Shown: in pieces, positions 28,698 through 52,555 of the stretch
Layout: every line of letters starts with the position of its first letter
Numbering within the stretch: the first letter of the stretch is position 1
Virus record (IMG/VR): IMGVR_UViG_3300047547_000250
Span: 1-55,059 of that record
Reading direction: 5' to 3' (one strand)
Source: a virus
Taxonomy: Duplodnaviria; Caudoviricetes
Length of the DNA: 55,059 bases
Translations under genes and position numbers: made by a program
The notes under the pieces: model-generated
The model's database searches: none
The model's input: the letters and a program-made list of their open reading frames with translations, nothing else
Told to the model about the DNA's origin: nothing

Positions 28698-29132
28698 ATG
28701 AACGATCAAATCAAAGCTATTGGTGCATTGGATATTGTCTTAACTGACATTTATGGCAATGTAAAAGAACAAATCCATGTTCCTAACTTAGTTGTAACTG
28801 TGGGTAAAAACCACATTGCAGCGCGTCTAGGGAGCTCTGCAACTGCAATGTCACACATGGCCATTGGTTCAGGTGCTGTTGCTGCTGCTGCTTCCGACTC
28901 AGCACTTGGTACCGAACTAGGACGTGTTGCATTGACTTCTACAACCGTTAACACAAACGTGGTTACCTATGTAGCTACATTTGGTGCTGGTGTAGGTACT
29001 GGTGCAGTAACTGAAGCTGGTCTATTCAATGCCGCTTCTGCAGGCACATTGCTATGTCGCACTCTGTTCTCTGTTATTAACAAGTCAGCATCTGACACTC
29101 TTACAATTAACTGGAACGTAACGATTTCCTAA
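28698..29132 (+). CDS. Small tail fibre/collar-type structural protein
   Basis: NLVVT.G, HMAIGSG......DSALGTEL.R, VTEAGLFN and INK...DTLTINW motifs. Confidence 0.7.
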   Translation: MNDQIKAIGALDIVLTDIYGNVKEQIHVPNLVVTVGKNHIAARLGSSATAMSHMAIGSGAVAAAASDSALGTELGRVALTSTTVNTNVVTYVATFGAGVGTGAVTEAGLFNAASAGTLLCRTLFSVINKSASDTLTINWNVTIS

Positions 29133-31225: not shown

Positions 31226-31522
31226 ATGACGGTTACATTGCGCGTACTTACAAACACAGGTGACACCACAAAAGGAGCACCGCTTTCAAACGCTGAGATT
31301 GATCAAAACTTTATTTCACTTGGTACCAATCCTAAATTCAATGGAAATGAAGGATTGAAGTTGCCAGCTGGTACAACATCTCAACGTGCATCTACACCAC
31401 AAACAGGTGAATTACGTTTTAATACGGAGTTAGGGACTTCAGAAATATACAATGGTGCTGAGTGGACTTCTGTTGGTGGGTCTGATGTGTTTGCAAAAAC
31501 CGTTGCATTGATTGGTCTATAA
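31226..31522 (+). CDS. Short tail-fibre-like adaptor protein
   Basis: KGAPLSNAEIDQNF and LPAGTTSQR.....GELRFNT....EIYNG.EW motifs; TAATG-coupled to the RCC1 array. Confidence 0.65.
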   Translation: MTVTLRVLTNTGDTTKGAPLSNAEIDQNFISLGTNPKFNGNEGLKLPAGTTSQRASTPQTGELRFNTELGTSEIYNGAEWTSVGGSDVFAKTVALIGL

Positions 31523-32868
31523 TGACAGTAAGCAACAAGGTTCTCGTTGATAAAATATCAAATGGTATTGCTGCAGGTCCATCAGCAGAGGATCTTGCTA
31601 CCTTGTTGACTGCGAGAAAAGAGTTGCAATCAATGTTTTTTTCGGTTGCAACAGAAGCAGAGTTGCCTATTGCTAGTGAAAATAAAGGTCGCATGATTTG
31701 GGTCGATTCACTGAAAGGCTATAGATTCAGTGATGGGATTGATTGGGTTAAAAAGTTTCCAACACCAATTAGGTATGAAAATGTTATATGGACTTGGGGT
31801 GGGGGTGCTAATGGCAGACTTGGCGACAATACTACAATAAACAAATCCTCACCCGTATCAGTTGTAGGTGGGTTTACAGACTGGTGTAAAGTAAGCGCTG
31901 GGTGTTTTCACTCAGCTGCTGTTCGTACCAATGGTACCATCTGGACATGGGGTGATAGTTCTGTTGGTCAACTTGGAAACAACACAATTATAGGCAAATC
32001 CTCACCAGTCTCTATAGTAGGTGGGTTTACAGACTGGTGTCAAGTAAGCGCTGGTAACAAACATACAGCTGCTGTACGTACTAATGGTACTATATGGACG
32101 TGGGGTTATGGATTTTTAGGTATACTTGGTGATAACACTATCGCAAATAAATCCTCCCCAGTCTCTGTTTTAGGTGGATTTACGGATTGGTGCCAAGTAA
32201 GCGCAGGTAGTTATCACACAGCTGCTGTGCGTACCAATAGTACCATCTGGACATGGGGTGATAGTTCTGTTGGTCAACTCGGGGATAATACAATTGTATC
32301 AAAATCATCACCAGTCTCAGTAGTCGGTGGATTCACTGACTGGTGTCAAGTGAGCGCTGGTAATCAACACACAGCTGCTGTGCGTACCAATGGTACATTG
32401 TGGGCTTGGGGGTGTGCTGGTACTGGTAGACTTGGTAATAACGATGCTACAGTTAATATATCTTCACCAGTATCTGTAGTCGGTGGATTCACCGACTGGT
32501 GCCAAGTAAGCGCTAGAGGATGTAATACCGCGGCTGTACGCACCAACGGTACATTGTGGTCATGGGGGTGTGGTACTAATGGTCAACTTGGTGATAACAC
32601 TATTGTAAACAAATCATCACCTGTATCAGTTGTTGGTGGATTCACTGACTGGTGTCAAGTTGATGTTGGTAGTAATCACTCAGCGGCTGTTCGTACTAAT
32701 GGTACATTGTGGACTTGGGGTGGTGGTACATATGGTAGACTAGGCGATAACACTATTGTATACAAACCCTCTCCAGTCTCAGTAGCAGGTGGATTTACCG
32801 ACTGGTGTCAAGTGAGTACCATGTTACAAAACACCGTAGCAATTAGAAAAAGACAGATTGGATTCTAA
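31522..32868 (+). CDS. RCC1-repeat 7-blade beta-propeller protein, type A (A1)
   Basis: Seven ~51-aa repeats W.WG....G.LGDNT...KSSPVSVVGGFTDWCQVSAG..H; N-terminal LP...ENKGR.IWV; ends QIGF. Confidence 0.9.
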   Translation: MTVSNKVLVDKISNGIAAGPSAEDLATLLTARKELQSMFFSVATEAELPIASENKGRMIWVDSLKGYRFSDGIDWVKKFPTPIRYENVIWTWGGGANGRLGDNTTINKSSPVSVVGGFTDWCKVSAGCFHSAAVRTNGTIWTWGDSSVGQLGNNTIIGKSSPVSIVGGFTDWCQVSAGNKHTAAVRTNGTIWTWGYGFLGILGDNTIANKSSPVSVLGGFTDWCQVSAGSYHTAAVRTNSTIWTWGDSSVGQLGDNTIVSKSSPVSVVGGFTDWCQVSAGNQHTAAVRTNGTLWAWGCAGTGRLGNNDATVNISSPVSVVGGFTDWCQVSARGCNTAAVRTNGTLWSWGCGTNGQLGDNTIVNKSSPVSVVGGFTDWCQVDVGSNHSAAVRTNGTLWTWGGGTYGRLGDNTIVYKPSPVSVAGGFTDWCQVSTMLQNTVAIRKRQIGF

Positions 32869-34206
32869 ATGGCTCTAAATTTTGGAAAACTTGAGCTAGA
32901 CCTAGCTGCTGTATCAAAAAATCTTACAAAGGCATCTGATAAATTATTGTTCAGTAAGATACTATCGAAGTTGCAAAACGGCTCAGTAACTGTTGTTGGT
33001 TCATTTTCTTTATTGCCTGTACTATCATCTGTGGCTGATGGGTCTTTATATTTTACTGAGAGTGATGGTGCTTTATATGTTGCTGATAGTAGCATATCCA
33101 ATTGGAGATTGTTGAGTAAAACGTATTATGGTGCTATTTGGGGATGGGGCGGAAATGCACGTGGACAACTAGGTGACAACACTATTTTATCAAGATCATC
33201 ACCAATATTAGCAGCTGTCGGATTTACTGATTGGTGTCAAGTAAGTGCTGGTAGCTCTCACACAGCCGCTGTACGCACCAATGGTACATTGTGGGCTTGG
33301 GGGTGTGCTGGTACTGGCAGACTCGGTGATAATACCGCTACAGACAAATCCTCCCCAGTATCAGTCGTAGGTGGATTCACCGACTGGTGTCAAGTAAGTG
33401 GTGGAACAAGCCATACAGCTGCTGTTCGTACTAATGGTACATTGTGGGCTTGGGGTAATAATCTTAGTGGTAGACTTGGTGACAATACTATTACATCTAA
33501 ATCATCTCCAGTCTCAGTTGTAGGTGGATTTACAGATTGGTGCCAAGTAAGCGTTAGTGTTACTCATGCTATATCCGTTAGAACGAATTGTACTATATGG
33601 GCTTGGGGGGATAATACAGCTGGAATTCTTGGTGACAATACCATTGTATCTAAATCCTCACCAGTCTCCGTAGTCGGTGGATTTACAGACTGGTGCCAAG
33701 TTAGTGCTGGTAATGTACACACAGCGGCTGTTCGTACTAATGGTACTATTTGGGGTTGGGGCTGCAATACTAGTGGTAGAATTGGTGACAATACTACAGT
33801 AAACAAATCCTCACCAGTCTCAGTTGTAGGTGGATTCACTGACTGGTGCCAAGTGAGTGCTGGTTATAACACTGCTGCTATTCGTACCAACGGTACTATT
33901 TGGGCTTGGGGTCCTGGTATATGTGGTATGCTTGGTGACAATACTACAGTAAACAAATCCTCCCCGGTATCAGTAGTCGGTGGATTTACAGACTGGTGCC
34001 AGGTAAGCGTTGGATGTTCACACACATCTGCTGTGCGTACCAATGGTACTATTTGGAGTTGGGGGTGCAACAGTTATGGTGCTCTTGGCAATAATGATAT
34101 TGTATCAAGGTCCTCACCAGTCTCAGTCGTAGGTGGATTTACTAATTGGAAACAAGTAAGCGCATCAAACAACACAACTTTAGCACTTCAAGTAAAATCA
34201 GTATAA
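32869..34206 (+). CDS. RCC1-repeat beta-propeller protein, type B (B1)
   Basis: Same repeat; N-terminus MALNF..LE...FS.LP.LSSV..GSLYF. Confidence 0.9.
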   Translation: MALNFGKLELDLAAVSKNLTKASDKLLFSKILSKLQNGSVTVVGSFSLLPVLSSVADGSLYFTESDGALYVADSSISNWRLLSKTYYGAIWGWGGNARGQLGDNTILSRSSPILAAVGFTDWCQVSAGSSHTAAVRTNGTLWAWGCAGTGRLGDNTATDKSSPVSVVGGFTDWCQVSGGTSHTAAVRTNGTLWAWGNNLSGRLGDNTITSKSSPVSVVGGFTDWCQVSVSVTHAISVRTNCTIWAWGDNTAGILGDNTIVSKSSPVSVVGGFTDWCQVSAGNVHTAAVRTNGTIWGWGCNTSGRIGDNTTVNKSSPVSVVGGFTDWCQVSAGYNTAAIRTNGTIWAWGPGICGMLGDNTTVNKSSPVSVVGGFTDWCQVSVGCSHTSAVRTNGTIWSWGCNSYGALGNNDIVSRSSPVSVVGGFTNWKQVSASNNTTLALQVKSV

Positions 34207-34209
34207 ATA
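34202..34209 (+). promoter_or_regulatory. T4 late promoter consensus TATAAATA
   Basis: Exact TATAAATA followed by a TAAGGAG RBS and ATG 34228. Confidence 0.7.
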
Positions 34210-34227
34210 TAAGATTAAGGAGTTCAT

Positions 34228-34851
34228 ATGTTCGTTTTAGTACACAACGGTAGAGTTTTAGTTGGTCCAATGGGTTGGAACCGTGCCATGTTTGATGGTA
34301 ATCTTGAGAAATTGAAAATTCAATTTACGTTACCACGTGCAGAGCCAGATGTTTTACCATTAGTAATCAATGAAAACACTGTAATCAAACGAGTAGATTT
34401 TGATTATCCAGTATACAATCCAAAGATTCAATATCTAGAAGGTCCATATTGGGATCATACGCAAACTAATTCTAGAGCGTTTTACGAAGTAAAACCACAA
34501 CCTATTGAGTCAGTCAAGGCAAATTTGAAACAAATTGTTGCTGAGAATCGTTGGAAAAAAGAAGTTGCTGGTACAAAAACAACTATACAAGGAGTTGAAG
34601 TAACTGTTGATACTGCTCGTGGTTCACGTGACATATTTGTTCAAAAGTATCTACTGTTGCCTGAAAATGGAACTGTTGGCTGGAAATTTCCTGAGTGTTG
34701 GATGACTCTAACTAAAGCTGAGTTAGGTGCAGCAGTATCAGCTGGTGCATCGCATGTTGAAAATGCATTCATTTGGGAAGCAACTAAAGCTAATTTGATT
34801 GATTTTAGTGATACACTAGAGCAACTGAACGTTATCAATCTTGAAGAGTAA
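34228..34851 (+). CDS. DUF4376-like tail fibre assembly/accessory protein
   Basis: RW.KE.AG, TD/DT..S, WK....W..LT..EL and HV...F.WE pattern. Confidence 0.75.
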   Translation: MFVLVHNGRVLVGPMGWNRAMFDGNLEKLKIQFTLPRAEPDVLPLVINENTVIKRVDFDYPVYNPKIQYLEGPYWDHTQTNSRAFYEVKPQPIESVKANLKQIVAENRWKKEVAGTKTTIQGVEVTVDTARGSRDIFVQKYLLLPENGTVGWKFPECWMTLTKAELGAAVSAGASHVENAFIWEATKANLIDFSDTLEQLNVINLEE

Positions 34852-34859
34852 ATATCAGT

Positions 34860-36230
34860 ATGGCTGATATTAATCAAGAAGTTCTACGTCGAATGGTGTC
34901 CACTAAGTTGGGCACTGTTTCAGTGTCTTCTGATTCGTCTGACTTTTTAATAACTCAGGCTGCAAATATTTTAGAACCAACGAACAGAGAATTTTTTGTT
35001 GCAACTGCTAATGATCTACCCGATCTATATTTGAAAAAAATACCCAATGGTACCATTGTATATGTTGACTCACTTGGAACTCAATTAGTTTCAAACAATG
35101 AAAAATGGTATGGTTTAGATGGTAGGTTGTTTAGAGATGATGCTCCTAGTAGAACGATTTGGGCTTGGGGGTGCAATGCTTCTGGTCAACTTAGTGACAA
35201 TACTATTGTAGCAAAATCATCTCCAGTCTCAGTAGTCGGTGGATTCACTGACTGGTGTCAGGTAAGCGCTGGATTGAACTGGTCAGCTGCTGTACGTAGC
35301 AATGGTACTATTTGGAGTTGGGGGTGTAACACATATGGTAGACTTGGTGACAATACTATTGTAGACAAATCCTCACCAGTCTCAGTAGTCGGTGGATTTA
35401 CAGATTGGTGTCAGGTTGATTCTGGACGATACCATTCAATTGCAATACGTACCAGTGGTACATTATGGGCATGGGGACGAGGTAGTGTTGGTAGACTAGG
35501 TGATAATTCAACTACAAGCAAATCCTCACCAGTATCAGTAGTCGGTGGATTCACTGACTGGTGTCAGGTAAGCGCTGGCAATCAACACACAGCTGCTGTA
35601 CGTAGCAATGGTACTATTTGGAGTTGGGGATATGGGTGTAATGGTAGACTTGGAGACAATACTATTGTAGACAAATCCTCACCAGTATCAGTAGTCGGTG
35701 GATTTACAGACTGGTGTCAAGTAAGCGCTGGGTGCGTGCACTCAGCTGCTGTGCGTACCAATGGTACTGTTTGGGCTTGGGGTATCGGTGTAGATGGTAG
35801 ACTTGGAGACAATACTATTGTAGCAAAATCATCTCCAGTCTCAGTCGTAGGTGGATTTACAGATTGGTGCCAAGTAAGCGCTGGTGATGCACACACAGCT
35901 GCTGTTCGTATCAATGGTACTATTTGGAGTTGGGGTAGTAATATATGCAGCAGACTTGGTGATAATACTATTGTAGACAAATCCTCCCCAGTATCTGTAG
36001 TCGGTGGATTTACAGATTGGTGTCAAGTGAGTGTTGGTAATGCACACTCAACCGCTGTACGTACCAATGGTACTATATGGTCTTGGGGTAGTGGTAGTAG
36101 TGGTAAACTAGGTGATAATACTATTGTAGACAAATCCTCACCAATCTCAGTAGTCGGTGGATTTACAGACTGGTGCCAAGTGGGTGCTGGTGTATATCAC
36201 ACCGCTGCATTAAGAATAACAAATATATGA
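34860..36230 (+). CDS. RCC1-repeat beta-propeller protein, type C (C1)
   Basis: Same repeat; N-terminus VATANDLPDL....IPNGTIVYV...DGR..RDD. Confidence 0.9.
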   Translation: MADINQEVLRRMVSTKLGTVSVSSDSSDFLITQAANILEPTNREFFVATANDLPDLYLKKIPNGTIVYVDSLGTQLVSNNEKWYGLDGRLFRDDAPSRTIWAWGCNASGQLSDNTIVAKSSPVSVVGGFTDWCQVSAGLNWSAAVRSNGTIWSWGCNTYGRLGDNTIVDKSSPVSVVGGFTDWCQVDSGRYHSIAIRTSGTLWAWGRGSVGRLGDNSTTSKSSPVSVVGGFTDWCQVSAGNQHTAAVRSNGTIWSWGYGCNGRLGDNTIVDKSSPVSVVGGFTDWCQVSAGCVHSAAVRTNGTVWAWGIGVDGRLGDNTIVAKSSPVSVVGGFTDWCQVSAGDAHTAAVRINGTIWSWGSNICSRLGDNTIVDKSSPVSVVGGFTDWCQVSVGNAHSTAVRTNGTIWSWGSGSSGKLGDNTIVDKSSPISVVGGFTDWCQVGAGVYHTAALRITNI

Positions 36231-37576
36231 CAGTAAGTATTCAACCACTATACGACATAATCAACAATAAAGTAGCATTACCTGCTACTAAACCTGTTGA
36301 ATTAATGCAACTGTCTGAAGCAGCAAAGATGCTTGATAGTATTGTGTATCGTGTTGCTAACTTAGCAGCACTTCCACCGGCGGCTGAAAACAAAGGTAGA
36401 TTGATTTGGGTTGATGATATCCAGAACTATCGATACAGCAATGGTACAACTTGGAGTATTGAATACAATAGTACACAAGTTATTAATAATGATATATGGA
36501 CTTGGGGTAATAATACCTCTGGTAGACTTGGTGACAATACCATTGCAGACAAATCCTCCCCAGTATCAGTCGTAGGTGGATTCACTGATTGGTCCCAAGT
36601 GAGCGCTGGTTGTCAACACACAGCTGCTGTACGTACTAACGGTACTATTTGGACTTGGGGTAACAATGCTTCTGGTAGACTTGGTGATAACACTATTGCA
36701 GACAAATCATCCCCAGTCTCAGTTGTGGGTGGGTTTACAGACTGGTGCCAAGTGGGTGCTGGATGCGCACACACAGCTGCTGTTCGTACCAATGGTACTA
36801 TTTGGAGCTGGGGCATTAATACCAGTGGTAGACTTGGTAACAATGCTATTGTAACTAGATCATCCCCAGTCTCAGTTGTCGGTGGATTCACTGACTGGTG
36901 CCAGGTAAGCGCTGGTGATTATCACACTGCTGCTGTACGTACCAATGGTACTATTTGGACTTGGGGGTATAATAACTCTGGTAGACTTGGTGATAACACT
37001 ATTGCAGACAAATCATCCCCGGTCTCTGTAGTTGGTGGATTCACTGATTGGTGCCAAGTGAGTGCTGGATATTCACACACAGCTGCTGTACGTACCAATG
37101 GTACTATTTGGAGTTGGGGTGTTAATGCTGCAGGTAAACTTGGTGATGGTACAGTTGCAGCAAGCTCATCCCCAGTCTCAGTTGTGGGTGGATTCACTGA
37201 CTGGTGCCAAGTAAGCGCTAGCAGTGGTCATACAGTTGCTGTTCGTACCAATGGTACTATTTGGAGTTGGGGGTTCAATGGTTCTGGTAGACTAGGGAAC
37301 AACGCAGTTGCAGCAAGCTCATCCCCAGTCTCAGTTGTGGGTGGATTCACTGACTGGTGCCAAGTAAGCGCTAGCAGTGGTCATACAGTTGCTGTTCGTA
37401 CCAATGGTACTATTTGGAGTTGGGGGTGTGGTAGTTCAGGTCAACTTGGTGACAATACCATTGCAGACAAATCCTCCCCAGTATCAGTCGTAGGTGGATT
37501 CACTGATTGGTCCCAAGTGAGCGCTAGTGGTCTGATTGCGATCGCAATCAGAACATATTCAGCTAAAGGTTTCTAA
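36227..37576 (+). CDS. RCC1-repeat beta-propeller protein, type A (A2)
   Basis: Start revised to the ATGA overlap at 36227 (MTVS...); LP.AAENKGRLIWV; ends KGF. Confidence 0.9.
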   Translation: MTVSIQPLYDIINNKVALPATKPVELMQLSEAAKMLDSIVYRVANLAALPPAAENKGRLIWVDDIQNYRYSNGTTWSIEYNSTQVINNDIWTWGNNTSGRLGDNTIADKSSPVSVVGGFTDWSQVSAGCQHTAAVRTNGTIWTWGNNASGRLGDNTIADKSSPVSVVGGFTDWCQVGAGCAHTAAVRTNGTIWSWGINTSGRLGNNAIVTRSSPVSVVGGFTDWCQVSAGDYHTAAVRTNGTIWTWGYNNSGRLGDNTIADKSSPVSVVGGFTDWCQVSAGYSHTAAVRTNGTIWSWGVNAAGKLGDGTVAASSSPVSVVGGFTDWCQVSASSGHTVAVRTNGTIWSWGFNGSGRLGNNAVAASSSPVSVVGGFTDWCQVSASSGHTVAVRTNGTIWSWGCGSSGQLGDNTIADKSSPVSVVGGFTDWSQVSASGLIAIAIRTYSAKGF

Positions 37577-38919
37577 TGTCATTCAATTTTACTAATTTAG
37601 AAATGGCATTATCTGAGAAGATGTCTTCAGGTACGTCATATGATCTTTTGTTGTATACAAAAGCATTGAAATTTTTGTCTCAAAATCTTGTATCTACTGT
37701 AAGACAATTTTCAGATCTACCAACATTAAGTTCAGTCACTGAAGGTAGTTTGTATTTGGTTGAAACTGAGAACGTAGTGTACGTTGCAGATAAAACAACG
37801 TATGGTGGATTCTGGAAGCCAATTAAAACTGACTACAGTAGCAAGGTTTGGACATGGGGTAGTAATGCATGTGGTCAACTCGGTAATAATACTGTTGTAG
37901 CACTATCATCCCCTGTATCAGTTGTAGGTTCTTTTACTGACTGGTGTCAAGTAAGTGCCGGTTGTCGTATGACTGTTGCTGTACGTTCTAATGGTACTAT
38001 TTGGACTTGGGGTTGTAACAATGGTGGTGAGCTCGGTGATAACACCATTGTATCTAAGTCATCACCAGTCTCAGTCGTAGGTGGATTTACAGATTGGTGT
38101 CAAGTAAGTGCTAGTGAACATACAACTGCTGGTGTACGTAGTAATAGTACATTATGGACTTGGGGCACCAATGCTGCTGGTAAACTCGGTGATAATACTA
38201 CATTAAACAAATCCTCACCAATCTCCGTAGTAGGTGGATTTACTGACTGGTGTCAAGTAAGCGCTGGAATTATACATACAATGGCAGTAAGATCCAATGG
38301 TACTATTTGGAGTTGGGGGTGCGGTGCATGTGGATTGTTAGGTAACAATTCTACTGTTAATAGATCATCTCCAGTCTCAGTAGTCGGTGGATTCACTGAC
38401 TGGTGCCAAGTAAGTGCTGGTACTGGACATACAGTCGCTGTGCGTACAAATGGTACTATTTGGAGTTGGGGTTGTGCAACTAACGGTAGACTTGGTGACA
38501 ATACTACAGCGTGTAAATCTTCTCCAGTCTCAGTAGTCGGTGGATTCACTGACTGGTGCCAAGTAAGCGCCGGTGATATACATTCCGCTGCTGTACGCAC
38601 TAATGGTACTGTGTGGACTTGGGGTCAAAATCCAGCTGGTCAACTTGGTGACAATACTATTGCTAACAAATCCTCTCCAGTCTCAGTAGTTGGTGGATTT
38701 ACAGACTGGTGTCAAGTAAGTGCAATTTACAGACACACAGCGGCTGTGCGTACCAATGGTACTATTTGGACTTGGGGAAGTAGTACGGCCGGTCAACTTG
38801 GCGACAATACTACAATAAACAAATCCTCTCCAGTCTCTGTCGTAGGTGGATTTACTGACTGGTGTCAAGTAAGCACTGGTAGCTTACATACAGTCGCAAT
38901 TCAAAAGAAAGTACATTAA
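37576..38919 (+). CDS. RCC1-repeat beta-propeller protein, type B (B2)
   Basis: MSFNF..LE...FSDLPTLSSVTEGSLYL N-terminus. Confidence 0.9.
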   Translation: MSFNFTNLEMALSEKMSSGTSYDLLLYTKALKFLSQNLVSTVRQFSDLPTLSSVTEGSLYLVETENVVYVADKTTYGGFWKPIKTDYSSKVWTWGSNACGQLGNNTVVALSSPVSVVGSFTDWCQVSAGCRMTVAVRSNGTIWTWGCNNGGELGDNTIVSKSSPVSVVGGFTDWCQVSASEHTTAGVRSNSTLWTWGTNAAGKLGDNTTLNKSSPISVVGGFTDWCQVSAGIIHTMAVRSNGTIWSWGCGACGLLGNNSTVNRSSPVSVVGGFTDWCQVSAGTGHTVAVRTNGTIWSWGCATNGRLGDNTTACKSSPVSVVGGFTDWCQVSAGDIHSAAVRTNGTVWTWGQNPAGQLGDNTIANKSSPVSVVGGFTDWCQVSAIYRHTAAVRTNGTIWTWGSSTAGQLGDNTTINKSSPVSVVGGFTDWCQVSTGSLHTVAIQKKVH

Positions 38920-40280
38920 TGTCATTAATAAACGCTACTTCACTTGAAGCTACTTTAGCATCTGCGATTGCAACTGTTAATGCATCTTCACTTGAAAATG
39001 TATATTCATTAATTGATGCTAATAATGTAATTAATGTTGATGCAATGTTTTATGTACAGACAGCAAATGATCTACCAGATCTTGCTACTGTACCAATTCC
39101 TAATGGTCAAATCGTATATGTAAACTCTATATCACTACATGTCATATCATGGAATTATAAGTGGATTTCATTTGATGGTAGAGTGTATAGAGATGATTCA
39201 AATGTTAATACTATTTGGAGTTGGGGCTGTGCAGGTAACGGTAGACTTGGTGACGATACTAGTTTAGACAAATCCTCTCCGGTATCAGTTGTAGGTGGAT
39301 TTACTGATTGGTGTCAAGTAAGTGTTGGTGGTAGCCATACATCTGCTGTGCGTACCAATGGTACTATCTGGGCTTGGGGACAAGGTAGTGCTGGTAAACT
39401 CGGTGATAATTCAACTACAAGCAAATCCTCACCAGTCTCTGTAGTCGGTGGATTTACTGATTGGTGTCAAGTAAGTGTTGGTGGTAGCCATACATCTGCT
39501 GTGCGTACCAATGGTACTATCTGGGCTTGGGGTAGCAATGCTGATGGTAAACTTGGTGATAACACTGCTACGTCTAAATCCTCACCAGTCTCTGTAGTCG
39601 GTGGATTTACTGATTGGTGTCAAGTAAGTGCTGGTGGTAGCCATACATCTGCTGTGCGTACCAATGGTACTATTTGGGCTTGGGGTAGCAATGAATTTGG
39701 TAAACTCGGTGATAATTCAACTACAAGCAAATCCTCACCAGTCTCTGTAGTCGGTGGATTTACTGATTGGTGTCAAGTGAGTGCTGGATGTGCACACTCA
39801 CTTGCTGTGCGTACCAATGGTACTATTTGGGCTTGGGGTAGTAATGGTGCAGGTAGACTTGGAGACAATACTACTGTATCAACCTCTTCACCAGTCTCTG
39901 TAGTCGGTGGGTTCACTGATTGGTGTCAAGTAAGCGCTGGCATTCAACACACAGCTGCTGTTCGCACTAATGGTACTATATGGACTTGGGGTAGTAATGG
40001 TGCAGGTATACTAGGTGACAATACTATTGCTAACAAATCCTCCCCAGTCTCAGTTGTCGGTGGATTCACTGACTGGTGCCAGGTAAGCGCTGGTGATTAT
40101 CACACTGCTGCTGTACGTACCAATGGTACTATTTGGACTTGGGGTAGTGGTGGTAGTGGTAGACTTGGTAGTGACACTATTACGACTAAATCATCTCCAG
40201 TCTCAGTAGTCGGTGGATTCACTGACTGGTGCCAAGTAAGCGCTGGTGTTTATCACACCGCTGCAATCCGTACCACATAA
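38919..40280 (+). CDS. RCC1-repeat beta-propeller protein, type C (C2)
   Basis: VQTANDLPDL...IPNGQIVYV...DGRVYRDD N-terminus. Confidence 0.9.
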   Translation: MSLINATSLEATLASAIATVNASSLENVYSLIDANNVINVDAMFYVQTANDLPDLATVPIPNGQIVYVNSISLHVISWNYKWISFDGRVYRDDSNVNTIWSWGCAGNGRLGDDTSLDKSSPVSVVGGFTDWCQVSVGGSHTSAVRTNGTIWAWGQGSAGKLGDNSTTSKSSPVSVVGGFTDWCQVSVGGSHTSAVRTNGTIWAWGSNADGKLGDNTATSKSSPVSVVGGFTDWCQVSAGGSHTSAVRTNGTIWAWGSNEFGKLGDNSTTSKSSPVSVVGGFTDWCQVSAGCAHSLAVRTNGTIWAWGSNGAGRLGDNTTVSTSSPVSVVGGFTDWCQVSAGIQHTAAVRTNGTIWTWGSNGAGILGDNTIANKSSPVSVVGGFTDWCQVSAGDYHTAAVRTNGTIWTWGSGGSGRLGSDTITTKSSPVSVVGGFTDWCQVSAGVYHTAAIRTT

Positions 40281-40288
40281 ATAAGTGT

Positions 40289-41632
40289 ATGACAATTAGT
40301 AACAAACACTTAATCGACAAAATCAACATAGAAATGGTTGGATCACCAACTGACATTTCTGATGTAACTGCTCTAACTAAAGCATCAATTGATGTTAGAC
40401 AAGTATTTTCTGTTGCTGACTTACAATCTTTACCAGCTGCGTTACTTAATACTGGTAGATTGGTATGGGTTCAATCTATTAAAGATTACAGATACAGTAA
40501 TGGTGTTGACTGGGTAAGAGATTTTAACAGCACAGTACATTATGAGAATACAGTTTGGGCTTGGGGGTTCGCTGCATGTGGTGCATTAGGTGATAACAGT
40601 GTTACAAACAAATCCTCCCCTGTCTCTGTAGTCGGTGGATTTACAGACTGGTGTCAAGTAAGTAGTGGATGTGCTAGCTCAGCTGCTGTACGTACCAATG
40701 GTACTATTTGGAGTTGGGGATGTGCAGGTAGTAGTCAACTTGGTGATAATACTGTAGTTAGTAGATCCTCCCCTGTCTCAGTTGTAGGTGGATTCACTGA
40801 CTGGTGCCAGGTTAATGTTGGTTTGTGTCATACAGTTGCTTTACGTACTAATGGTTCTATATGGACATGGGGTTGCAATTTAAATGGTCAACTTGGTGAC
40901 AACACTACTATAGCTAAATCCTCACCAATCTCAGTTGTTGGTGGATTCACTGATTGGTGTCAAGTAAGCGCTGGTGGTAGCCATACATCTGCTGTACGTA
41001 CCAATGGTACTATTTGGGCTTGGGGTAGCAATGCTGATGGTAGACTTGGTGACAACACTACTATAGGTAAATCCTCACCAGTCTCTGTTGTAGGTGGATT
41101 CACTGATTGGTGCCAAGTGAGTGCTGGTAGTTTACATACTGTTGCAATCCGTACCAATGGTACTATTTGGAGTTGGGGGAGTAATATCTCTGGTAGACTT
41201 GGTGACAATACTATTGTAGACAAATCATCACCAGTCTCCGTAGTCGGTGGATTCACTGACTGGTGTCAAGTGAGTACAGGTGGTTCCCACACAGCAGCAG
41301 TGAGAACTAATGGTACTATTTGGACTTGGGGATACAATGCTTGTGGTAGGCTTGGTGATAATACTGTAGTTAGTAGACCCTCTCCAGTATCTGTAGTCGG
41401 TGGATTCACTGATTGGTGTCAAGTGAGTGCTAGTAATGGTCACACCTCAGCTATTCGTACCAATGGTACTATTTGGAGTTGGGGTTGCAATGCGTCTGGT
41501 CAACTTGGAGACAATACTATTGTAGCAAAATCCTCCCCAGTCTCTGTTGCTAGTGGGTTCAGTGATTGGTGTCAGGTAAGCGCTGGTAGCAATGCTACAT
41601 TCGCAATCAAAAAGCGTCAGATTGGATTCTAA
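40289..41632 (+). CDS. RCC1-repeat beta-propeller protein, type A (A3)
   Basis: Start revised to 40289 (MTISNK...); LP....NTGRLVWV; ends QIGF; TAAATA at 40278-40283. Confidence 0.9.
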   Translation: MTISNKHLIDKINIEMVGSPTDISDVTALTKASIDVRQVFSVADLQSLPAALLNTGRLVWVQSIKDYRYSNGVDWVRDFNSTVHYENTVWAWGFAACGALGDNSVTNKSSPVSVVGGFTDWCQVSSGCASSAAVRTNGTIWSWGCAGSSQLGDNTVVSRSSPVSVVGGFTDWCQVNVGLCHTVALRTNGSIWTWGCNLNGQLGDNTTIAKSSPISVVGGFTDWCQVSAGGSHTSAVRTNGTIWAWGSNADGRLGDNTTIGKSSPVSVVGGFTDWCQVSAGSLHTVAIRTNGTIWSWGSNISGRLGDNTIVDKSSPVSVVGGFTDWCQVSTGGSHTAAVRTNGTIWTWGYNACGRLGDNTVVSRPSPVSVVGGFTDWCQVSASNGHTSAIRTNGTIWSWGCNASGQLGDNTIVAKSSPVSVASGFSDWCQVSAGSNATFAIKKRQIGF

Positions 41633-42991
41633 ATGACACTGAATATACAACAAATAGAAAAAACAATCTCTGATGCTATTGAAAAAACTTTAAATGCAAA
41701 CGATGTATTGTTATTGAGTAAATCAATTTCATTGTTGAAAACTGGTGGTGTTATTGTTGTACCATCATTTTCTAATCTACCACTAATTGATACTGTTGAA
41801 TCTGGTACATTAGCATATGTAAAGACTGACAACTTATTGTATGTAGCAGATAAGAAAGATCTGTATGCTGACTTACATATTTGGAGATCGATTCAGAAAG
41901 ATTACATTTCAACTGTTTGGGGTTGGGGTGCTAATGGTTCTGGTAGACTTGGAGACAATACTACTGTATCCAAATCCTCTCCAGTCTCAGTTGTGGGTGG
42001 GTTTACAGATTGGTGTCAAGTAAGTGCTGGTGGCAATCATTCAGCGGCTGTTCGCACCAATGGTACTATTTGGGCTTGGGGGTGTGGTAGTTCAGGTCAA
42101 CTTGGTAGTGACACTATTACGACTAAATCATCACCAGTCTCAGTAGTTGGTGGATTCACCGACTGGTGTCAAGTGAGTGGTGGATTGTTTCACACAGCTG
42201 CTGTACGTAGCAATGGTACTATTTGGAGTTGGGGTAGTGGTAGTAGTGGTCAACTTGGAGACAATACGCTTGTAACTAGATCCTCCCCAGTATCAGTTGT
42301 AGGTGGATTCACAGACTGGTGTCAAGTAAGCGCTGGTGATGCACACACAGCTGCTGTACGTAGCAATGGTACTATTTGGAGTTGGGGAATTGGTTCTTGT
42401 GGTAGGCTTGGTGACAATACTATTGTAACTAAATCATCACCTGTCTCAGTTGTTGGTGGATTCACTGATTGGTGTCAAGTAAGCGCTGGTGGTAGCCATA
42501 CATCTGCTGTTCGTACCAACGGTACTATTTGGGCATGGGGTAATAATGGGTTTGGTCAGCTTGGCAACAATGATTTTATATCCAAATCCTCCCCAGTCTC
42601 TGTAGTCGGTGGATTCACTGATTGGTGTCAAGTAAGCGCTGGTGTGTACCATACATCTGCTGTACGTACCAATGGTACTATTTGGACTTGGGGGTGTGGT
42701 ACATGTGGATTGTTAGGTAACAATTCTACTGTTAATAGATCCTCACCAGTATCAGTTGTAGGTGGATTCACTGATTGGTGTCAAGTGAGTGCTGGTAGAT
42801 GTCACACCGCTGCTGTGCGTACTAATGGTACTGTGTGGAGCTGGGGTTCTAATGAGTTTGGTAGACTAGGTGACAATACTATTGTAGACAAATCCTCCCC
42901 AGTATCAGTCGTAGGTGGATTCACTGATTGGTCCCAAGTGGGTGCTGGTGGATGTCACGCTACTGCTATTAGAAAAAGATTAATGCTATGA
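41633..42991 (+). CDS. RCC1-repeat beta-propeller protein, type B (B3)
   Basis: MTLNI..IE...FSNLPLIDTVESGTLAY N-terminus. Confidence 0.9.
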   Translation: MTLNIQQIEKTISDAIEKTLNANDVLLLSKSISLLKTGGVIVVPSFSNLPLIDTVESGTLAYVKTDNLLYVADKKDLYADLHIWRSIQKDYISTVWGWGANGSGRLGDNTTVSKSSPVSVVGGFTDWCQVSAGGNHSAAVRTNGTIWAWGCGSSGQLGSDTITTKSSPVSVVGGFTDWCQVSGGLFHTAAVRSNGTIWSWGSGSSGQLGDNTLVTRSSPVSVVGGFTDWCQVSAGDAHTAAVRSNGTIWSWGIGSCGRLGDNTIVTKSSPVSVVGGFTDWCQVSAGGSHTSAVRTNGTIWAWGNNGFGQLGNNDFISKSSPVSVVGGFTDWCQVSAGVYHTSAVRTNGTIWTWGCGTCGLLGNNSTVNRSSPVSVVGGFTDWCQVSAGRCHTAAVRTNGTVWSWGSNEFGRLGDNTIVDKSSPVSVVGGFTDWSQVGAGGCHATAIRKRLML

Positions 42992-44355
42992 ATACATTAG
43001 ATACTCAATACAACGAGTCAAGAACTCAAGAATTAATCAATACACTAACCACTTCCACTAAGGAAGGGATGTTGCTTGCTGCAATATCAACAAATGCAGT
43101 ATCAGATAATCGCCAAGTATCAGTTGCAACAGCAAATGACTTACCAGATCTGTTTCTTACAAGAATACCAGATGGTACTATTGTGTTTGTTGAAGCAATC
43201 AATATGCATGTTATTGCAAACACAGAGCGATGGATGAGCTTAGATGGTCGAGTCTACCGCAATGATGCACCTAGTAGAACGGTTTGGAGTTGGGGGTGTG
43301 CTGGTAGTGGTCAGCTTGGCGATGACACTATCGTTGATAAATCCTCACCAGTATCGGTAGTCGGTGGATTCACTGATTGGTGCCAAGTAAGCGCTGGGTG
43401 TAATCATTCAGCTGCTGTGCGCATGAATGGTACTCTGTGGGGTTGGGGTAGCGATATTAACGGTAAACTTGGTGATAATAATTCAGTATCAACATCATCC
43501 CCGGTCTCTGTAGTCGGTGGATTTACTGATTGGTGTCAAGTAAGTGCTGGAATGCCCCACTCAGCTGCTGTGCGCACCAATGGTACTATTTGGAGTTGGG
43601 GTAGCGGTGCAGATGGTAGACTTGGTGATAATACGCTTGTAACTAGATCCTCACCAGTATCAGTTGTAGGTGGATTTACTGACTGGTGTCAAGTGAGTGC
43701 TGGTGGATTTCATACTGCAGCTGTGCGTACCAATGGTACTGTGTGGAGTTGGGGTAATAATACCTCTGGTAGACTTGGTGATAATACCGCTACAGACAAA
43801 TCCTCTCCAGTCTCTGTAGTCGGTGGATTCACTGACTGGTGTCAAGTGAGTGTTGGGTATGAACATTCAACTGCTATCCGTACCAATGGTACTATATGGA
43901 GTTGGGGTCTTGGTAGTTCAGGTAGACTTGGTGACAATACTAATGTAACTAGATCCTCACCAGTATCAGTTGTAGGTGGATTCACTGACTGGTGTCAAGT
44001 TAGTGTTGGTGTTTGTCACACTGCTGCTGTGCGTACCAATGGTACTATTTGGAGTTGGGGAAATGGATGTTTTGGTATACTTGGTGACAATACTATTACA
44101 ACTAGATCCTCCCCAGTCTCAGTTGTAGGTGGATTTACTGACTGGTGCCAAGTAAGCGCTGGTAGGTGTCACACCGCTGCTGTGCGTACTAATGGTACTA
44201 TTTGGACTTGGGGTAATAATAGTAGCGGTAGACTTGGTAATGGTACAGTTACGACAAGTTCATCGCCAGTCTCTACCGTTAGCGGGTTCACTGACTGGTG
44301 CCAAGTGGGTGCTGGTGGCTTTCACTCAGTCGCATTAAGAGTAACAGACATATAA
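42988..44355 (+). CDS. RCC1-repeat beta-propeller protein, type C (C3)
   Basis: VATANDLPDL...IPDGTIVFV...DGRVYRND N-terminus. Confidence 0.9.
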   Translation: MNTLDTQYNESRTQELINTLTTSTKEGMLLAAISTNAVSDNRQVSVATANDLPDLFLTRIPDGTIVFVEAINMHVIANTERWMSLDGRVYRNDAPSRTVWSWGCAGSGQLGDDTIVDKSSPVSVVGGFTDWCQVSAGCNHSAAVRMNGTLWGWGSDINGKLGDNNSVSTSSPVSVVGGFTDWCQVSAGMPHSAAVRTNGTIWSWGSGADGRLGDNTLVTRSSPVSVVGGFTDWCQVSAGGFHTAAVRTNGTVWSWGNNTSGRLGDNTATDKSSPVSVVGGFTDWCQVSVGYEHSTAIRTNGTIWSWGLGSSGRLGDNTNVTRSSPVSVVGGFTDWCQVSVGVCHTAAVRTNGTIWSWGNGCFGILGDNTITTRSSPVSVVGGFTDWCQVSAGRCHTAAVRTNGTIWTWGNNSSGRLGNGTVTTSSSPVSTVSGFTDWCQVGAGGFHSVALRVTDI

Positions 44356-44416: not shown

Positions 44417-45100
44417 ATGACATCTTTGAATCTAACGCCATGTAATAACATGGCAGTTGAAAACGCATACATTATCACAATAAAAAACAATGAAACATCC
44501 GAGTTTCTTTCAGCTCGATGTCAACAATCCTGCATTGAAACAAATATGCCATACAGTATATGGCAAGCATTCGATGGTACAGGCAGTGATATTAAAATCC
44601 CAGACAATCTAAAAGATGCATCTTGGTTAAAATGGTTCAAGTTGTATGAAACATTTCTTTCACCAACAGAAGTATCGTGTTACCTATCCCATCTCTCATT
44701 GTGGGTACACTGTATGGAAATTGACCAACCCATTGTGATTCTAGAACACGATGCTGTCATGGTTGCACCCTATAGAAACCATTTTGGATTCAACCAAATT
44801 GTATACCTAGGATGTTCCGAACAAGCAAAGGGATGGAATGTAACACCTATACCACCCATGGGACAAAGAAATCCAAACTACAAATTCATGCTGAGAGCAC
44901 ATGCATATGCAGTGGACCCACATTCAGCAAAAAATCTTGTTGCACACACTCTAAAATATGGTATAAATGAATCATTAGATGTTACAATGAGGGCTGACAT
45001 TTTTGGTATCATTCAAGGTGGATTATTTGCATTTGATATACCCTACCATGAATCTACCATAAACAGCAGAAAAAAACATCCAGATGGAACAGAAAGGTAA
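44417..45100 (+). CDS. Glycosyltransferase family 25-like
   Basis: AYIIT, QAFDG, E.SCYLSH.SLW..C, IVILEHDA and AHAYAV.P..AKNL motifs. Confidence 0.8.
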   Translation: MTSLNLTPCNNMAVENAYIITIKNNETSEFLSARCQQSCIETNMPYSIWQAFDGTGSDIKIPDNLKDASWLKWFKLYETFLSPTEVSCYLSHLSLWVHCMEIDQPIVILEHDAVMVAPYRNHFGFNQIVYLGCSEQAKGWNVTPIPPMGQRNPNYKFMLRAHAYAVDPHSAKNLVAHTLKYGINESLDVTMRADIFGIIQGGLFAFDIPYHESTINSRKKHPDGTER

Positions 45101-45103
45101 ACA

Positions 45104-45649
45104 ATGAAACTTAATATTGGCTCAGGTGGTACGCAATACGAAGGTTATAAAACATGTGATTATGATCCTTTAGCAGAACCAGATTTTTTGTTCAACTTAG
45201 AAACAGATCGTTTTCCCTTTGAAGATAGTACAGTCGAATCTGTTATTGCACATCATGTTTTTGAACATCTCGGTGAAGGATACTTCAATTGTTTAAAAGA
45301 GCTGTACCGAGTATGTAAACACGGTGCAATCATCGATGTTCGAGTACCACATCACCGACATGATTATTTCTTCGATGATCCTACACATCGTCGACCCATT
45401 ACTGTTGGTGGAATGCTCTTGTTCAGTAAAAAGCATAACAAGCTATGCAAAGAACAAGGTGCTGCATCATCTAGACTGGGTGACTATTTTGATGTTGACT
45501 TTGAAATTGTTCAACATGAAATTGTCCCCTCTGGTAAGTACCGTGAACAGTTTGTTGGTATGGACCGAGAAACTGTTGAATCATATCTACGTGAACACAG
45601 CAATATCATTGAAGAAGTATGGATGCAACTAGTAGTCGTCAAAGAATGA
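45104..45649 (+). CDS. Class I SAM-dependent methyltransferase
   Basis: LNIGSG, FPFEDSTVE, HVFEHL, ELYRVCK.G and DPTH motifs. Confidence 0.88.
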   Translation: MKLNIGSGGTQYEGYKTCDYDPLAEPDFLFNLETDRFPFEDSTVESVIAHHVFEHLGEGYFNCLKELYRVCKHGAIIDVRVPHHRHDYFFDDPTHRRPITVGGMLLFSKKHNKLCKEQGAASSRLGDYFDVDFEIVQHEIVPSGKYREQFVGMDRETVESYLREHSNIIEEVWMQLVVVKE

Positions 45650-47001
45650 GAAAGTTTGATGCAAACCACGCAAGTGGTATTGTAATGGACTTACTGACCA
45701 GTGAAAAACGCAAAATTGCGTTTGAAATACTGGATATGTACTATATGCACGCTGAAACACTTTCGGACTTTGACATACTAGGTGGTCTTGCTCTAAAAGC
45801 AGAACATCGTCAGTTGTATCTAAAGTGTGCAGAAGCAGCGTATACCAAAGCAGAGACATCTGAACAGTTGTATATTGCTAGATCCAATCTCTATAAAGCA
45901 TACAATGCATTGAACTATCCAGAAAAGGCATTGTTCTACATTGGTCTAAATCTCAAAGTAACACCAGATGATTTTGAGACACAGACACAACGAGCATTCA
46001 ACCTAGCATTGCAAGGAAATCGTCGAGAGTCAGAGGATATTCTGTCTGGACTTGCAGTCAAGTTTCCTGATAGAGCAAAAGATCTTAAAAGTGCATTCTC
46101 TGGTAAAATGTTACGCAATGGCAATACAGCAGAAGGCATTTTATCATTCATTGAAACATTTAAACCCAAGAATGTACTGTTTGATGATGTCTTAAAAATG
46201 AAACGTTGGGATGGTATTCCTCGTCCAGGAAAAACAATCTATGTCGATGGTGAAGGTGGCATTGGTGATGAAATCATTAACATCCGTTTCTTTAAGCATC
46301 TTGAAGATCTAGGAATGAAACCAATTCTATATTCTGCTTGGTCTGAATATAGAAAAGATACTATTGAGTTTTTCAAACGAAATGGATTTGAGGTTACTAC
46401 CGATAAAATTACAGTTGATAGAACACAGCTATGGGTACCAATGATGTCCTTACCAGGATATCTTAACCTAACTGAAAATCAACTATGGTATGGTCCATAT
46501 CTAACACCACAACGAAAGAATCAATTAAAATTTCCAAATGTGAAATTAAAAATTGGTATCAAATGCTCAGGTAATCCATATTTCAGCCAAGACGAATATC
46601 GAAAAATCGATATTGATAAAATGTTGGAGTATCTACCCATTGATAACAACCAAGTATGTGTCTATTACATTGACAAACAACCATTAAGTGATTTAAAGTT
46701 TCCAGTAGTTGACTTATCTCCAAATATAAAATCATGGGAAGATACATTAGACATCATTGACCAAATGGATGTTATTGTGAGCTCATGTACGAGCTTGGTG
46801 CATGCAGCAGGTGCAATGGGTAAAGAAACTCATGTGATTGTTCCAATCGCTGAATACTATATATGGTCAACTACAAGCAAAACAACTCGTAGTCCTTGGT
46901 ATGGTGAAAACTTTCATGTACATAAGCAAACAAAGGTTAGAAGTTGGGATGAGCCACTTCAAGAAGTGTCTATAGTATTAAACAAATTGATTGAGAAATA
47001 A
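45646..47001 (+). CDS. TPR-like helical region plus GT-B (GT9-like) glycosyltransferase
   Basis: Helical N-terminus, then RWDG...GKTI....EGGIGDEI...RF, PMMSLP and D.IVSSCTSLVHAAGAMGK. Start revised to the ATGA overlap. Confidence 0.8.
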   Translation: MRKFDANHASGIVMDLLTSEKRKIAFEILDMYYMHAETLSDFDILGGLALKAEHRQLYLKCAEAAYTKAETSEQLYIARSNLYKAYNALNYPEKALFYIGLNLKVTPDDFETQTQRAFNLALQGNRRESEDILSGLAVKFPDRAKDLKSAFSGKMLRNGNTAEGILSFIETFKPKNVLFDDVLKMKRWDGIPRPGKTIYVDGEGGIGDEIINIRFFKHLEDLGMKPILYSAWSEYRKDTIEFFKRNGFEVTTDKITVDRTQLWVPMMSLPGYLNLTENQLWYGPYLTPQRKNQLKFPNVKLKIGIKCSGNPYFSQDEYRKIDIDKMLEYLPIDNNQVCVYYIDKQPLSDLKFPVVDLSPNIKSWEDTLDIIDQMDVIVSSCTSLVHAAGAMGKETHVIVPIAEYYIWSTTSKTTRSPWYGENFHVHKQTKVRSWDEPLQEVSIVLNKLIEK

Positions 47002-47774: not shown

Positions 47775-47776
47775 AC

Positions 47777-49253: not shown

Positions 49254-49255
49254 GA

Positions 49256-49284
49256 AAAAGGACCATTTGGTCCTTTTATTTTTT
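49256..49284. terminator. Bidirectional intrinsic terminator
   Basis: AAAAGGACCA-TT-TGGTCCTTTT followed by ATTTTTT, at the junction of convergent operons. Confidence 0.85.
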
Positions 49285-49476
49285 GCCCCATTCAATATTG
49301 TTCCATATTCGCTCATGTACATAAAAGAAACAAGTATTGAGAACTATTTGAGTGATTGCAATGGTACTAGATATCTGAATGTTACCTGTTGAAATCCATG
49401 CAACGGAGAATGTAGATACGCTTCCAATAAACCGCCATGTTATTGTTTTTAGTATAGAGCGTTTTGCCGAGTCCAT
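49276..49476 (-). CDS. DUF2061-like small membrane protein
   Basis: RSILKTITWR...YVHERIWN.I.WG; this family usually accompanies APS kinase. Confidence 0.85.
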   Translation of the reverse strand: MDSAKRSILKTITWRFIGSVSTFSVAWISTGNIQISSTIAITQIVLNTCFFYVHERIWNNIEWGKK

Positions 49477-52522: not shown

Positions 52523-52546
52523 AAAAACCTTTACTAAATATATGAT

Positions 52547-52555
52547 ATTATAACA
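52547..52555 (-). promoter_or_regulatory. Extended -10 promoter for the hldE operon
   Basis: Minus strand TGT-TATAAT about 25 nt upstream of the hldE ATG. Confidence 0.5.

Follow-up and report, generated by a model that had tools for sequence, protein, structure and literature searches.

A candidate host-recognition array of nine RCC1 propeller genes with three N-terminal classes in a phage genome fragment

Introduction

The IMG/VR virus fragment IMGVR_UViG_3300047547_000250 (Caudoviricetes), whose full length of 55,059 bp we refer to as the window, is 14% complete according to CheckV and carries an array of nine plus-strand genes that occupy positions 31522-44355 in its list of open reading frames (ORFs). 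The encoded proteins of 445-456 amino acids (aa) each join an N-terminal domain of one of three classes, A, B or C, to a seven-bladed RCC1 propeller. Judging from the sequences, the picture is one of old class-specific anchors joined to propellers that have been homogenised within each genome. In our reading, the array encodes binding heads that are anchored to the tail or baseplate and come in three docking classes, together with one chaperone. This reading as a whole has, in our estimate, about an even chance of being right; that the RCC1 proteins are parts of the tail or baseplate is highly probable, and that the three classes mark non-equivalent positions in one assembly is probable.

In mechanistic terms, the array would have arisen when one lineage triplicated a conserved host-recognition module found in large T4-like, probably cyanophage-like, phages. 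The module would consist of a small fibre-like adaptor, three propeller genes of docking types A, B and C, and one DUF4376 chaperone. The N-terminal part of each protein would be a single copy of an ~80-aa unit, formed by two helices and a small β unit with an LP...G...V...W signature, that anchors the protein to the adaptor, the baseplate or a fibre and trimerises. The C-terminal part is an RCC1 propeller of seven blades with a near-invariant framework, whose hypervariable S1-S2 and S3-S4 loops on one face would form the ligand-binding surface, and the extra triplets would supply further binding heads. The model predicts that the array proteins are present in the virion, anchored there, oligomeric, capable of binding ligands and served by the action of a chaperone.

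Nine propellers with a uniform framework

A previous sequence-only reading of this DNA had proposed nine RCC1 genes, each with seven blades and an N-terminal domain, and this is borne out. All 63 matches to the Pfam family RCC1 (PF00415) in the window lie above the cut-off and are distributed as seven per gene (9 x 7), and the N-terminal non-propeller domains measure 85-96 aa. The W.WG landmark of the blades also occurs seven times per protein, and 52 of the 54 intervals between its occurrences measure exactly 51 aa, the remaining ones 50 and 52 aa. The three genes scanned against WD40_RLD (PF25390) score 213-352 bits at a cut-off of 150.

Structure models were built for two proteins, the product of gene 1 and the 207-aa DUF4376 protein discussed below. 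In the AlphaFold2 model of gene 1 (38 homologues; pLDDT 92.3, pTM 0.80) an N-terminal part of two helices and three short strands precedes a propeller that model and Foldseek together identify as the closed seven-bladed fold. A Foldseek search of the PDB returns UVR8, the RLD of HERC2 and RCC1 (E ~1e-35), which have the same fold with TM scores of about 0.72 by query and 0.85-0.89 by target. Eukaryotic RCC1-like domains are 22-27% identical to gene 1, and the window differs from them in the unusual uniformity of its blades, which are about 70% identical to each other irrespective of gene, blade index or class. Nothing leads one to expect that the array proteins have Ran exchange activity.

Among the 63 blades about 30 positions are near-invariant, and positions 8, 10, 11, 13, 20-22, 43 and 44 are hypervariable. 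According to the DSSP strand order of the model, the hypervariable positions would lie in the S1-S2 and S3-S4 loops, and the invariant GGFTDW and NGT loops would lie on the opposite face. Cysteine is frequent at several of the hypervariable positions (18 of 63 blades at position 8, 8 at 11, 9 at 43 and 6 at 44), where it could form disulfides or metal sites. A conserved cysteine is found at blade position 37 in 59 of the 63 blades of the nine genes (31780-44340).

The propellers carry no class signal, be it by blade index, by class or on a tree of 46 propeller domains, where class labels change 28 times compared with a mean of 28.9 after shuffling. They group by genome, with support of 99 for L118, 100 for L120 and 99 each for L146, L119 and L138 (L numbers denote loci of related phages), and the nine propellers of the window form a bush with no supported clade of their own. 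Identical residues in blades are encoded by identical codons at a rate of 0.42-0.59 within a genome and 0.28-0.39 between genomes, a comparison to be read against codon usage that itself differs between the genomes (GC3 0.28-0.40).

Three N-terminal classes copied as triplets

The sequence-only reading gave the class order in the window as A,B,C three times over, and this is correct. Global N-terminal identities amount to 41-43% within class A (genes 1, 4 and 7), 35-43% within class B (genes 2, 5 and 8) and 36-41% within class C (genes 3, 6 and 9), compared with 17-34% between classes. The A, B and C profiles are nevertheless mutually homologous (hhalign probability 95-99%). Of the class motifs given in the earlier reading the content holds, whereas the spacers after 'LP' and 'LPDL' comprise four residues and not three. 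The C-terminal GF ascribed to class A is present in all three window copies, and of 19 class A proteins from the window and its relatives, 13 have a GF within their final six residues. Genes 4 and 7 are taken to start at the ATGs at 36227 and 40289, fitting the class A motif MT[VI]S; the ORF list has their starts at upstream GTGs.

On a tree of 61 N-terminal domains from the window and its relatives, two of the three clades that had been anticipated are recovered, A (19 rows) and C (21 rows), with support of 100/100 each. Class B is a paraphyletic grade from which both A and C arise. The window gene pairs (1,7), (2,8) and (3,9) have support of 97/93, 94/64 and 99/80, and all three class trees read ((triplet 1, triplet 3), triplet 2) within the window. 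The pairing of triplet 1 with triplet 3 in every class means that whole triplets were copied in this lineage, separately from the origin of the second set in L120-type phages. Tandem copying of a three-gene unit yields a periodic order by itself, and therefore the order alone is no evidence of selection.

Neighbouring genes of the array are joined by overlaps of 1 or 4 nt, by direct abutment or by gaps of 8-21 nt. The description as nine coupled genes thus holds, but it had overlooked a DUF4376 gene between genes 2 and 3 (Table 1). Antisense ORFs of 87-115 aa are found on the minus strand at 33564-33839, 35717-35980, 36613-37197, 38253-38600 and 40960-41256. They recur because the blade sequence repeats, corresponding frames opposite propeller genes are present in relatives, and they look like by-products of the blade repeat and not like genes.

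A repeated blade sequence might also have misled the assembly and produced a ninefold array where there is none. The region is indeed highly repetitive, and the contig ends of one relative overlap by exactly 127 bp within a blade. However, blade DNA identity averages 72% with a maximum of 90%, the nine genes are distinct, intact and in frame, within-class N-termini differ by about 60%, and similar arrays exist on independent contigs from many samples. An artefact of this kind is very improbable.

Arrays in related phages

Relatives were gathered from IMG/VR with gene 3 as query, which gave 23 loci, and with a DUF4376 alignment, which gave 42; a hidden Markov model (HMM) scan of the collected loci found matches in 60. 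Numerous loci are near-copies from related samples, so that they represent few independent evolutionary events. The relatives that carry the module (G001-G005) are records of 127-329 kb that are 70-100% complete, with the 328-kb record at 77%. Taken together with the low completeness of the window, these record sizes point to jumbo T4-like phages, possibly above 350 kb in size.

The sequence-only reading had expected related phages to vary in whole triplets. This is what part of the collection shows: L118 has one set, A-B-[D]-C (D being the DUF4376 gene), after which its array ends, and a search of the whole record, which is 88% complete, finds exactly three N-terminal units; L120-type loci (six N-terminal matches in the 328-kb record) and L139 have two A-B-C sets, and the window has three. 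The order A-B-[D]-C-A-B-C, preceded by the adaptor, is found on eight contigs. Other contigs have a mixed order. An arrangement A-B-B'-[D]-C-A-C occurs at 21 loci on 11 contigs, and its B' is not orthologous on the tree to the second B of L120-type arrays; L138, whose 5' end is cut, reads (cut gene)-B-[D]-C-B-C. The earlier reading had named irregular order or number in relatives as evidence against its proposal, and such irregularity is in part observed, in these two arrangements and in fused genes with 14, 18 and 21 blades.

Another irregular array is that of L105/L107, which are one 202-kb record with direct terminal repeats, 100% complete and with six N-terminal units (2A:2B:2C). Its gene order starts with a gene of 18 blades, one of 7 blades whose N-terminus is a Gly-rich (collagen-like) repeat, and an A gene, and continues with an A gene with 14 blades, a B gene across the contig join, B, [D], C and C. 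At that join the contig ends meet within a blade through the exact 127-bp overlap, and it should therefore be treated cautiously. Seven loci form a short-leader group of three propeller genes with leaders of 23-45 aa in the order X-[D]-Y-Z, the X, Y and Z leader types being conserved between phages. Fused genes of 14 and 21 blades occur at two loci, and the remaining loci are fragments or variants, such as L114 with two Z genes. Two or three propellers per chain, with or without one anchor unit, were seen in L105/L107, L149, L150 and L010, the last being the Synechococcus phage BUCT-ZZ01 with its 14-blade protein. Judging by the proteins with 14, 18 and 21 blades, fusion is a second route, besides gene copying, to a larger number of heads.

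Every array seen complete has A, B and C in equal numbers, one of each in L118, two of each in L139, the L105/L107 record and the arrays of the L120 and L095 types, and three of each in the window; the order varies. A possible imbalance is seen in L138, where B-C is duplicated and the 5' end is cut.

The N-terminal unit in other proteins

A search of 1.84 billion proteins with a profile built from the N-terminus only gave 728 matches at E<=0.001, of which 198 reach E<=1e-10, and the best 150 of the 728 were characterised. RCC1 proteins of ~450 aa (class A, B or C) and short fragments make up most of these 150. In ten of the 150, a B-like unit stands at the head of a C-terminal region of >500 aa that lacks RCC1 blades. 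One of the ten, P0060, has collagen repeats after the unit and matches tail-fibre PHROGs, and six of the other nine were scanned against Pfam and PHROG with no significant family. About twenty of the best 150 carry the unit several times per chain, in four to six copies by the class models and up to 11 matched stretches by HMMER. P0001 contains five ~85-aa copies and is similar at its N-terminus to a J-type central fibre domain (PDB 9ze4 chain N, E 6e-4); both P0001 and P0003 match the tail-fibre family phrog_892. P0010 places a B-like and a C-like unit in series ahead of one propeller, and its contig, sought for genomic context, was not found. Mtd_N and DUF2793 each appeared once for the unit at E ~0.02 and were set aside as not significant.

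The N-terminal module is thus shared with other tail fibres (phrog_892, collagen and other C-termini). Because it occurs in tandem-repeat fibres, before collagen and on other C-termini, it qualifies as a portable tail-fibre element, and the settings that use it would normally be trimeric.

A baseplate and tail-fibre setting

As stated in the sequence-only reading, the array of the window directly follows a gp8-like gene (phrog_438) and a 98-aa fibre-like adaptor gene, which overlaps gene 1 by 1 nt. Upstream of the gp8-like gene lie genes of the gp6 family (phrog_219, E 1e-157) and of a baseplate-wedge family (phrog_17744), and together with gp8 and the adaptor they support the baseplate and tail-fibre setting that had been proposed. 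In relatives, the genes 5' of the array are collagen-like tail-fibre genes and not gp8; a tail or baseplate module, as expected of receptor-binding or tail-fibre proteins, precedes the array in the window and in the relatives alike. The middle of the gp8-like protein (about residues 160-520) is built from repeats rich in Gly, Thr and Val, with matches to numerous large 'virion structural protein' and baseplate families, and comparable repeats are found in the 810-aa product of 20422-22854.

Matches of the adaptor lie in the first ~50 aa of 18 PHROG families, mainly proteins of unknown function of ~300-350 aa, and the window copy has no Pfam match. Its homologues in relatives are located before the first propeller gene. 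In L146 the homologue is 216 aa long and ends in Peptidase_S74 (chaperone of endosialidase, E 3.4e-14), an intramolecular chaperone domain typical of trimeric fibres and spikes. The adaptor therefore also points to normally trimeric fibre settings.

The 207-aa product of the DUF4376 gene scores 29.7 bits against PF14301 (DUF4376; cut-off 25) with the domain at its C-terminus, all 24 homologues match the family as well (best E 1.4e-12), and phrog_10508, annotated as 'tail fiber protein', matches at E 1.5e-10. The gene is present in 24 of 24 distinct related arrays that were aligned, always within the array of propellers, where it follows B or X, and so takes the place, directly downstream of a fibre or receptor-binding gene, that chaperone genes have behind the genes they serve. 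Its structure model (pLDDT 95.1) matches DUF4376 phage proteins in BFVD, that of Synechococcus phage S-SRM01 among them. Against the PDB, none of 383 Foldseek matches reaches E<=0.001, and a likeness to prefoldin-beta, the best match with E 0.06, was discarded as not significant.

DUF4376 proteins have been described as tail-fibre chaperones (PMC7289586, PMC7882524). According to these accounts, gp27 of Alteromonas phage V22 carries DUF4376 and is an essential intermolecular chaperone of the V22 receptor-binding protein, and in the Campylobacter CJIE1 prophage the gene that lies downstream of the H-fibre, the DUF4376 part of which is likened to Mu Tfa, is required for fibre function. The pairs gp26/gp27 of V22 and H-fibre/DUF4376 of CJIE1 thus resemble the array in that a DUF4376 protein needed for function is encoded beside a receptor-binding gene. 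They differ from it in that their fibres are not RCC1 propellers, and in that here one predicted chaperone gene accompanies three to nine propeller genes. By analogy, the 207-aa protein would be the chaperone of the propeller proteins, and one may speculate that a single shared chaperone helps to explain why the propeller frameworks are so uniform within a genome. The T4 late-promoter-like sequence TATAAATA has its sole window copy at 34202-34209, 19 nt before the DUF4376 start and across the stop of gene 2. With one occurrence in the window compared with 4.9 expected by chance its count is uninformative, and what is suggestive is its position; sigma-70-like and terminator-like sites in the window are at shuffle level and allow no inference on internal transcription units.

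These surroundings also bear on the idea that RCC1 proteins are not tail parts but act in the cell or the head, for instance by organising DNA, a role raised in the report on the RCC1-like proteins of phage phAPEC6 (PMC7247149). The position of the array between baseplate and tail-fibre genes and a homologue of tail-fibre chaperones, an N-terminal unit common to tail-fibre proteins, and hypervariable loops that suit an arms race at the cell surface all speak against it. We consider such a role quite improbable.

How the heads might assemble

If A, B and C mark distinct positions, the question is how their chains come together. One answer is an obligate pseudo-threefold heterotrimer of one A, one B and one C chain, in which each triplet would be a three-headed adhesin and chains of different triplets may mix. 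The three N-terminal types are homologous by hhalign, every complete array with classed N-termini keeps a 1:1:1, 2:2:2 or 3:3:3 balance, the window has copied whole triplets with concordant pairings, and the short-leader relatives likewise keep three leader types in X-[D]-Y-Z. The occurrence of the unit in trimeric fibre contexts, and of a B-like together with a C-like unit before the one propeller of P0010, are also consistent with this arrangement. On the other side, 11 contigs depart from the order with A-B-B'-[D]-C-A-C and a B' that is not orthologous to the L120-type second B, L138 has copied B-C alone, L114 has an extra Z, and L105 has two A genes, one of them with a double propeller. 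The balance is shared by descent, so that independent cases are few, the use of the unit in tandem repeats and before collagen implies homotrimers, and the units of P0010 stand in series on one chain and not side by side. We therefore regard the heterotrimer as rather unlikely, and the same holds for its structural version, in which A, B and C would be diverged copies of one fibre-shaft unit that co-assemble as a heterotrimeric stalk with three different hypervariable propellers. If true, the host-binding repertoire would be enlarged by copying whole triplets and possibly by mixing chains among them, and one DUF4376 chaperone would keep all propeller frameworks compatible. We know of no earlier heterotrimeric phage receptor-binding protein.

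Alternatively, a stack of A, B and C trimers could rise head to tail from the adaptor, in the order of their genes, as one long bottle-brush fibre in which every level bears a propeller ring. The tandem axial repeats of the N-terminal unit in other fibre proteins would be a covalent version of such a stack, the adaptor always stands ahead of the first A, a periodic A-B-C order suits a cyclic interface rule, and the B-like and C-like units of P0010 are in series. Yet both A-B-B'-[D]-C-A-C and B-[D]-C-B-C break a simple cyclic rule, and serial stacking seems improbable to us.

Since the N-terminal unit is found in fibre settings that are normally homotrimeric, homotrimers are slightly favoured over the heterotrimer. 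We weakly prefer class-specific docking of homotrimers to a mixed A+B+C trimer, and among heteromer, stack and homotrimers it takes the largest share.

Several observations weigh against this picture of anchored, class-specifically docked binding heads. A stoichiometric heteromer would explain the balance of A, B and C in several lineages no worse than independent homotrimers would. The N-terminal unit has no significant match in Pfam (0 of 59 members) or among PDB sequences, where a tailspike N-terminus is best with E 0.4. Atlas leads to PTL_trimer, T4_gp9_10_N, Mtd_N and collagen proteins were rejected, with scores of 0.83-0.88, or TM ~0.5 on ~55 residues, that lie below the tool's own reliability marks. 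Homology between a motif of the adaptor and the N-terminal unit is likewise unproven, as the in-register hhalign alignment has a probability of 0.4-9%. The S1-S2 and S3-S4 loops would share one face according to strand topology, not coordinates. Finally, among 80 fetched loci of gp8 relatives (of 212 confirmed), RCC1 blades occur in one and an array after gp8 in none; the adjacency to gp8 is therefore specific to this window and not conserved.

Relation to known systems

Branched multi-tailspike systems such as those of CBA120, G7C and phi92 have adjacent receptor-binding genes in which an N-terminal docking module fixes the place of each protein in the complex. Their heads are β-helix tailspikes that form homotrimers, whereas the heads in the window are RCC1 propellers.

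RCC1 virion proteins in multiple copies have been recorded before from other large phages. Published accounts describe three consecutive RCC1 genes of coliphage W70 (W70_237-239) whose products were found in virions by mass spectrometry, the structural RCC1 protein GAP_001 of Cronobacter phage GAP32, also from virion mass spectrometry, with many copies in 121Q and PBECO4, and eleven RCC1-like proteins in the jumbo coliphage phAPEC6, in the report on which the function of RCC1 in prokaryotic systems is stated to be unknown (PMC7247149). These phages share with the window the tandem multi-copy RCC1 propeller genes, and phrog_4219, the RCC1 family of W70, is the best PHROG match of window gene 1. 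The sequence relation is remote, in that none of the five phages is among the 15 records matched by tblastn (E<=1e-5). Compared by description, the passages on W70, GAP32 and phAPEC6 make no mention of docking classes at the N-terminus, of triplet units or of a DUF4376 gene linked to the propeller genes. A limited literature search, supplements excluded, found no description of N-terminal classes, triplet units or a DUF4376 link in phage RCC1 arrays.

A closer parallel is the isolated freshwater cyanomyophage S-SRM01 (Kyanoviridae), which infects Synechococcus. Its gp335-gp336-gp337 encode an RCC1 protein, a DUF4376 homologue (E 1e-25) and another RCC1 protein, directly after genes for a baseplate wedge protein and a 'long tail fiber distal subunit', with a third RCC1 gene nearby (gp344). 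Downstream it also has a cluster with TPR, sulfotransferase and glycosyltransferase genes. It differs in having leaders of 28-39 aa instead of the ~90-aa docking unit, in its three propeller genes and in a propeller identity of 46%. The terms 'RCC1' and 'chromosome condensation' are absent from the main text of its description. By analogy with S-SRM01 and BUCT-ZZ01, our guess is that the host might be a freshwater picocyanobacterium.

Neighbouring genes

The genes downstream of the array (Table 1) are in part kept in relatives. All eight relatives compared have the methyltransferase-like gene and the 460-aa TPR-like gene on the 3' side, and most of them have the sulfotransferase-like 257-aa gene and a 315-aa gene downstream too. 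Synteny with the array extends to the first four or five genes of this sugar/sulfate cluster in most or all of these relatives, and the enzymes of the cluster might modify tail proteins or the host surface. The region is flanked on both sides by similarity to PF23140 ('podophage GP4 fiber I protein gp80'), weak at 28698-29132 (E 0.0036, below cut-off) and clear at 52619-53050 (E 2.7e-17). The latter gene is followed by an ORF of 607+ aa with no family match that runs off the end of the window.

Table 1. Features of the propeller array and its surroundings in the window
Feature	Position	Strand	Evidence and remarks
gp8-like baseplate wedge protein, 680 aa	29171-31213	+	phrog_438, E 4.3e-98, residues 5-243; Pfam scan of the product without match
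98-aa fibre-like adaptor	31226-31522	+	stop overlaps gene 1 start by 1 nt
RCC1 propeller gene 1, class A, 448 aa	31522-32868	+	RCC1 x7; WD40_RLD E 4e-105; class A clade
RCC1 propeller gene 2, class B, 445 aa	32869-34206	+	Pfam RCC1 x7; N-terminal identity, tree
DUF4376 protein, 207 aa, probable tail-fibre assembly chaperone	34228-34851	+	PF14301; phrog_10508
RCC1 propeller gene 3, class C, 456 aa	34860-36230	+	Pfam RCC1 x7; class C clade
RCC1 propeller gene 4, class A, 449 aa	36227-37576	+	4-nt overlap with gene 3; blades, identity, tree
RCC1 propeller gene 5, class B, 447 aa	37576-38919	+	blades, identity, tree
RCC1 propeller gene 6, class C, 453 aa	38919-40280	+	blades, identity, tree
RCC1 propeller gene 7, class A, 447 aa	40289-41632	+	blades, identity, tree
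RCC1 propeller gene 8, class B, 452 aa	41633-42991	+	blades, identity, tree
RCC1 propeller gene 9, class C, 455 aa	42988-44355	+	blades, identity, tree
GT25 glycosyltransferase	44417-45100		directly after array
Methyltransferase-like gene	45104-45649
460-aa TPR protein	45619-47001		Atlas neighbours include TPR plus glycosyltransferase-9 proteins
Sulfotransferase	47001-47774
APS-kinase-like, NAD epimerase, cupin, PfkB plus cytidylyltransferase (HldE-like) genes	cluster 44417-52558	minus

Outlook

The locus and about 40 related contigs place multi-copy RCC1 genes firmly in a host-recognition module. They suggest a modular logic in which a portable fibre-type anchor comes in three docking classes, a constant scaffold presents variable loops, a chaperone gene is linked to the heads, and the system grows by copying of gene sets. 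Conserved anchors combined with propellers homogenised within each genome also clearly exemplify concerted evolution in a putative family of phage adhesins. The function of multi-copy RCC1 genes thereby becomes testable in culturable relatives, the Synechococcus phages S-SRM01 and BUCT-ZZ01. If the heads do bind different receptors, the array would show how very large aquatic phages widen or hedge their host range.

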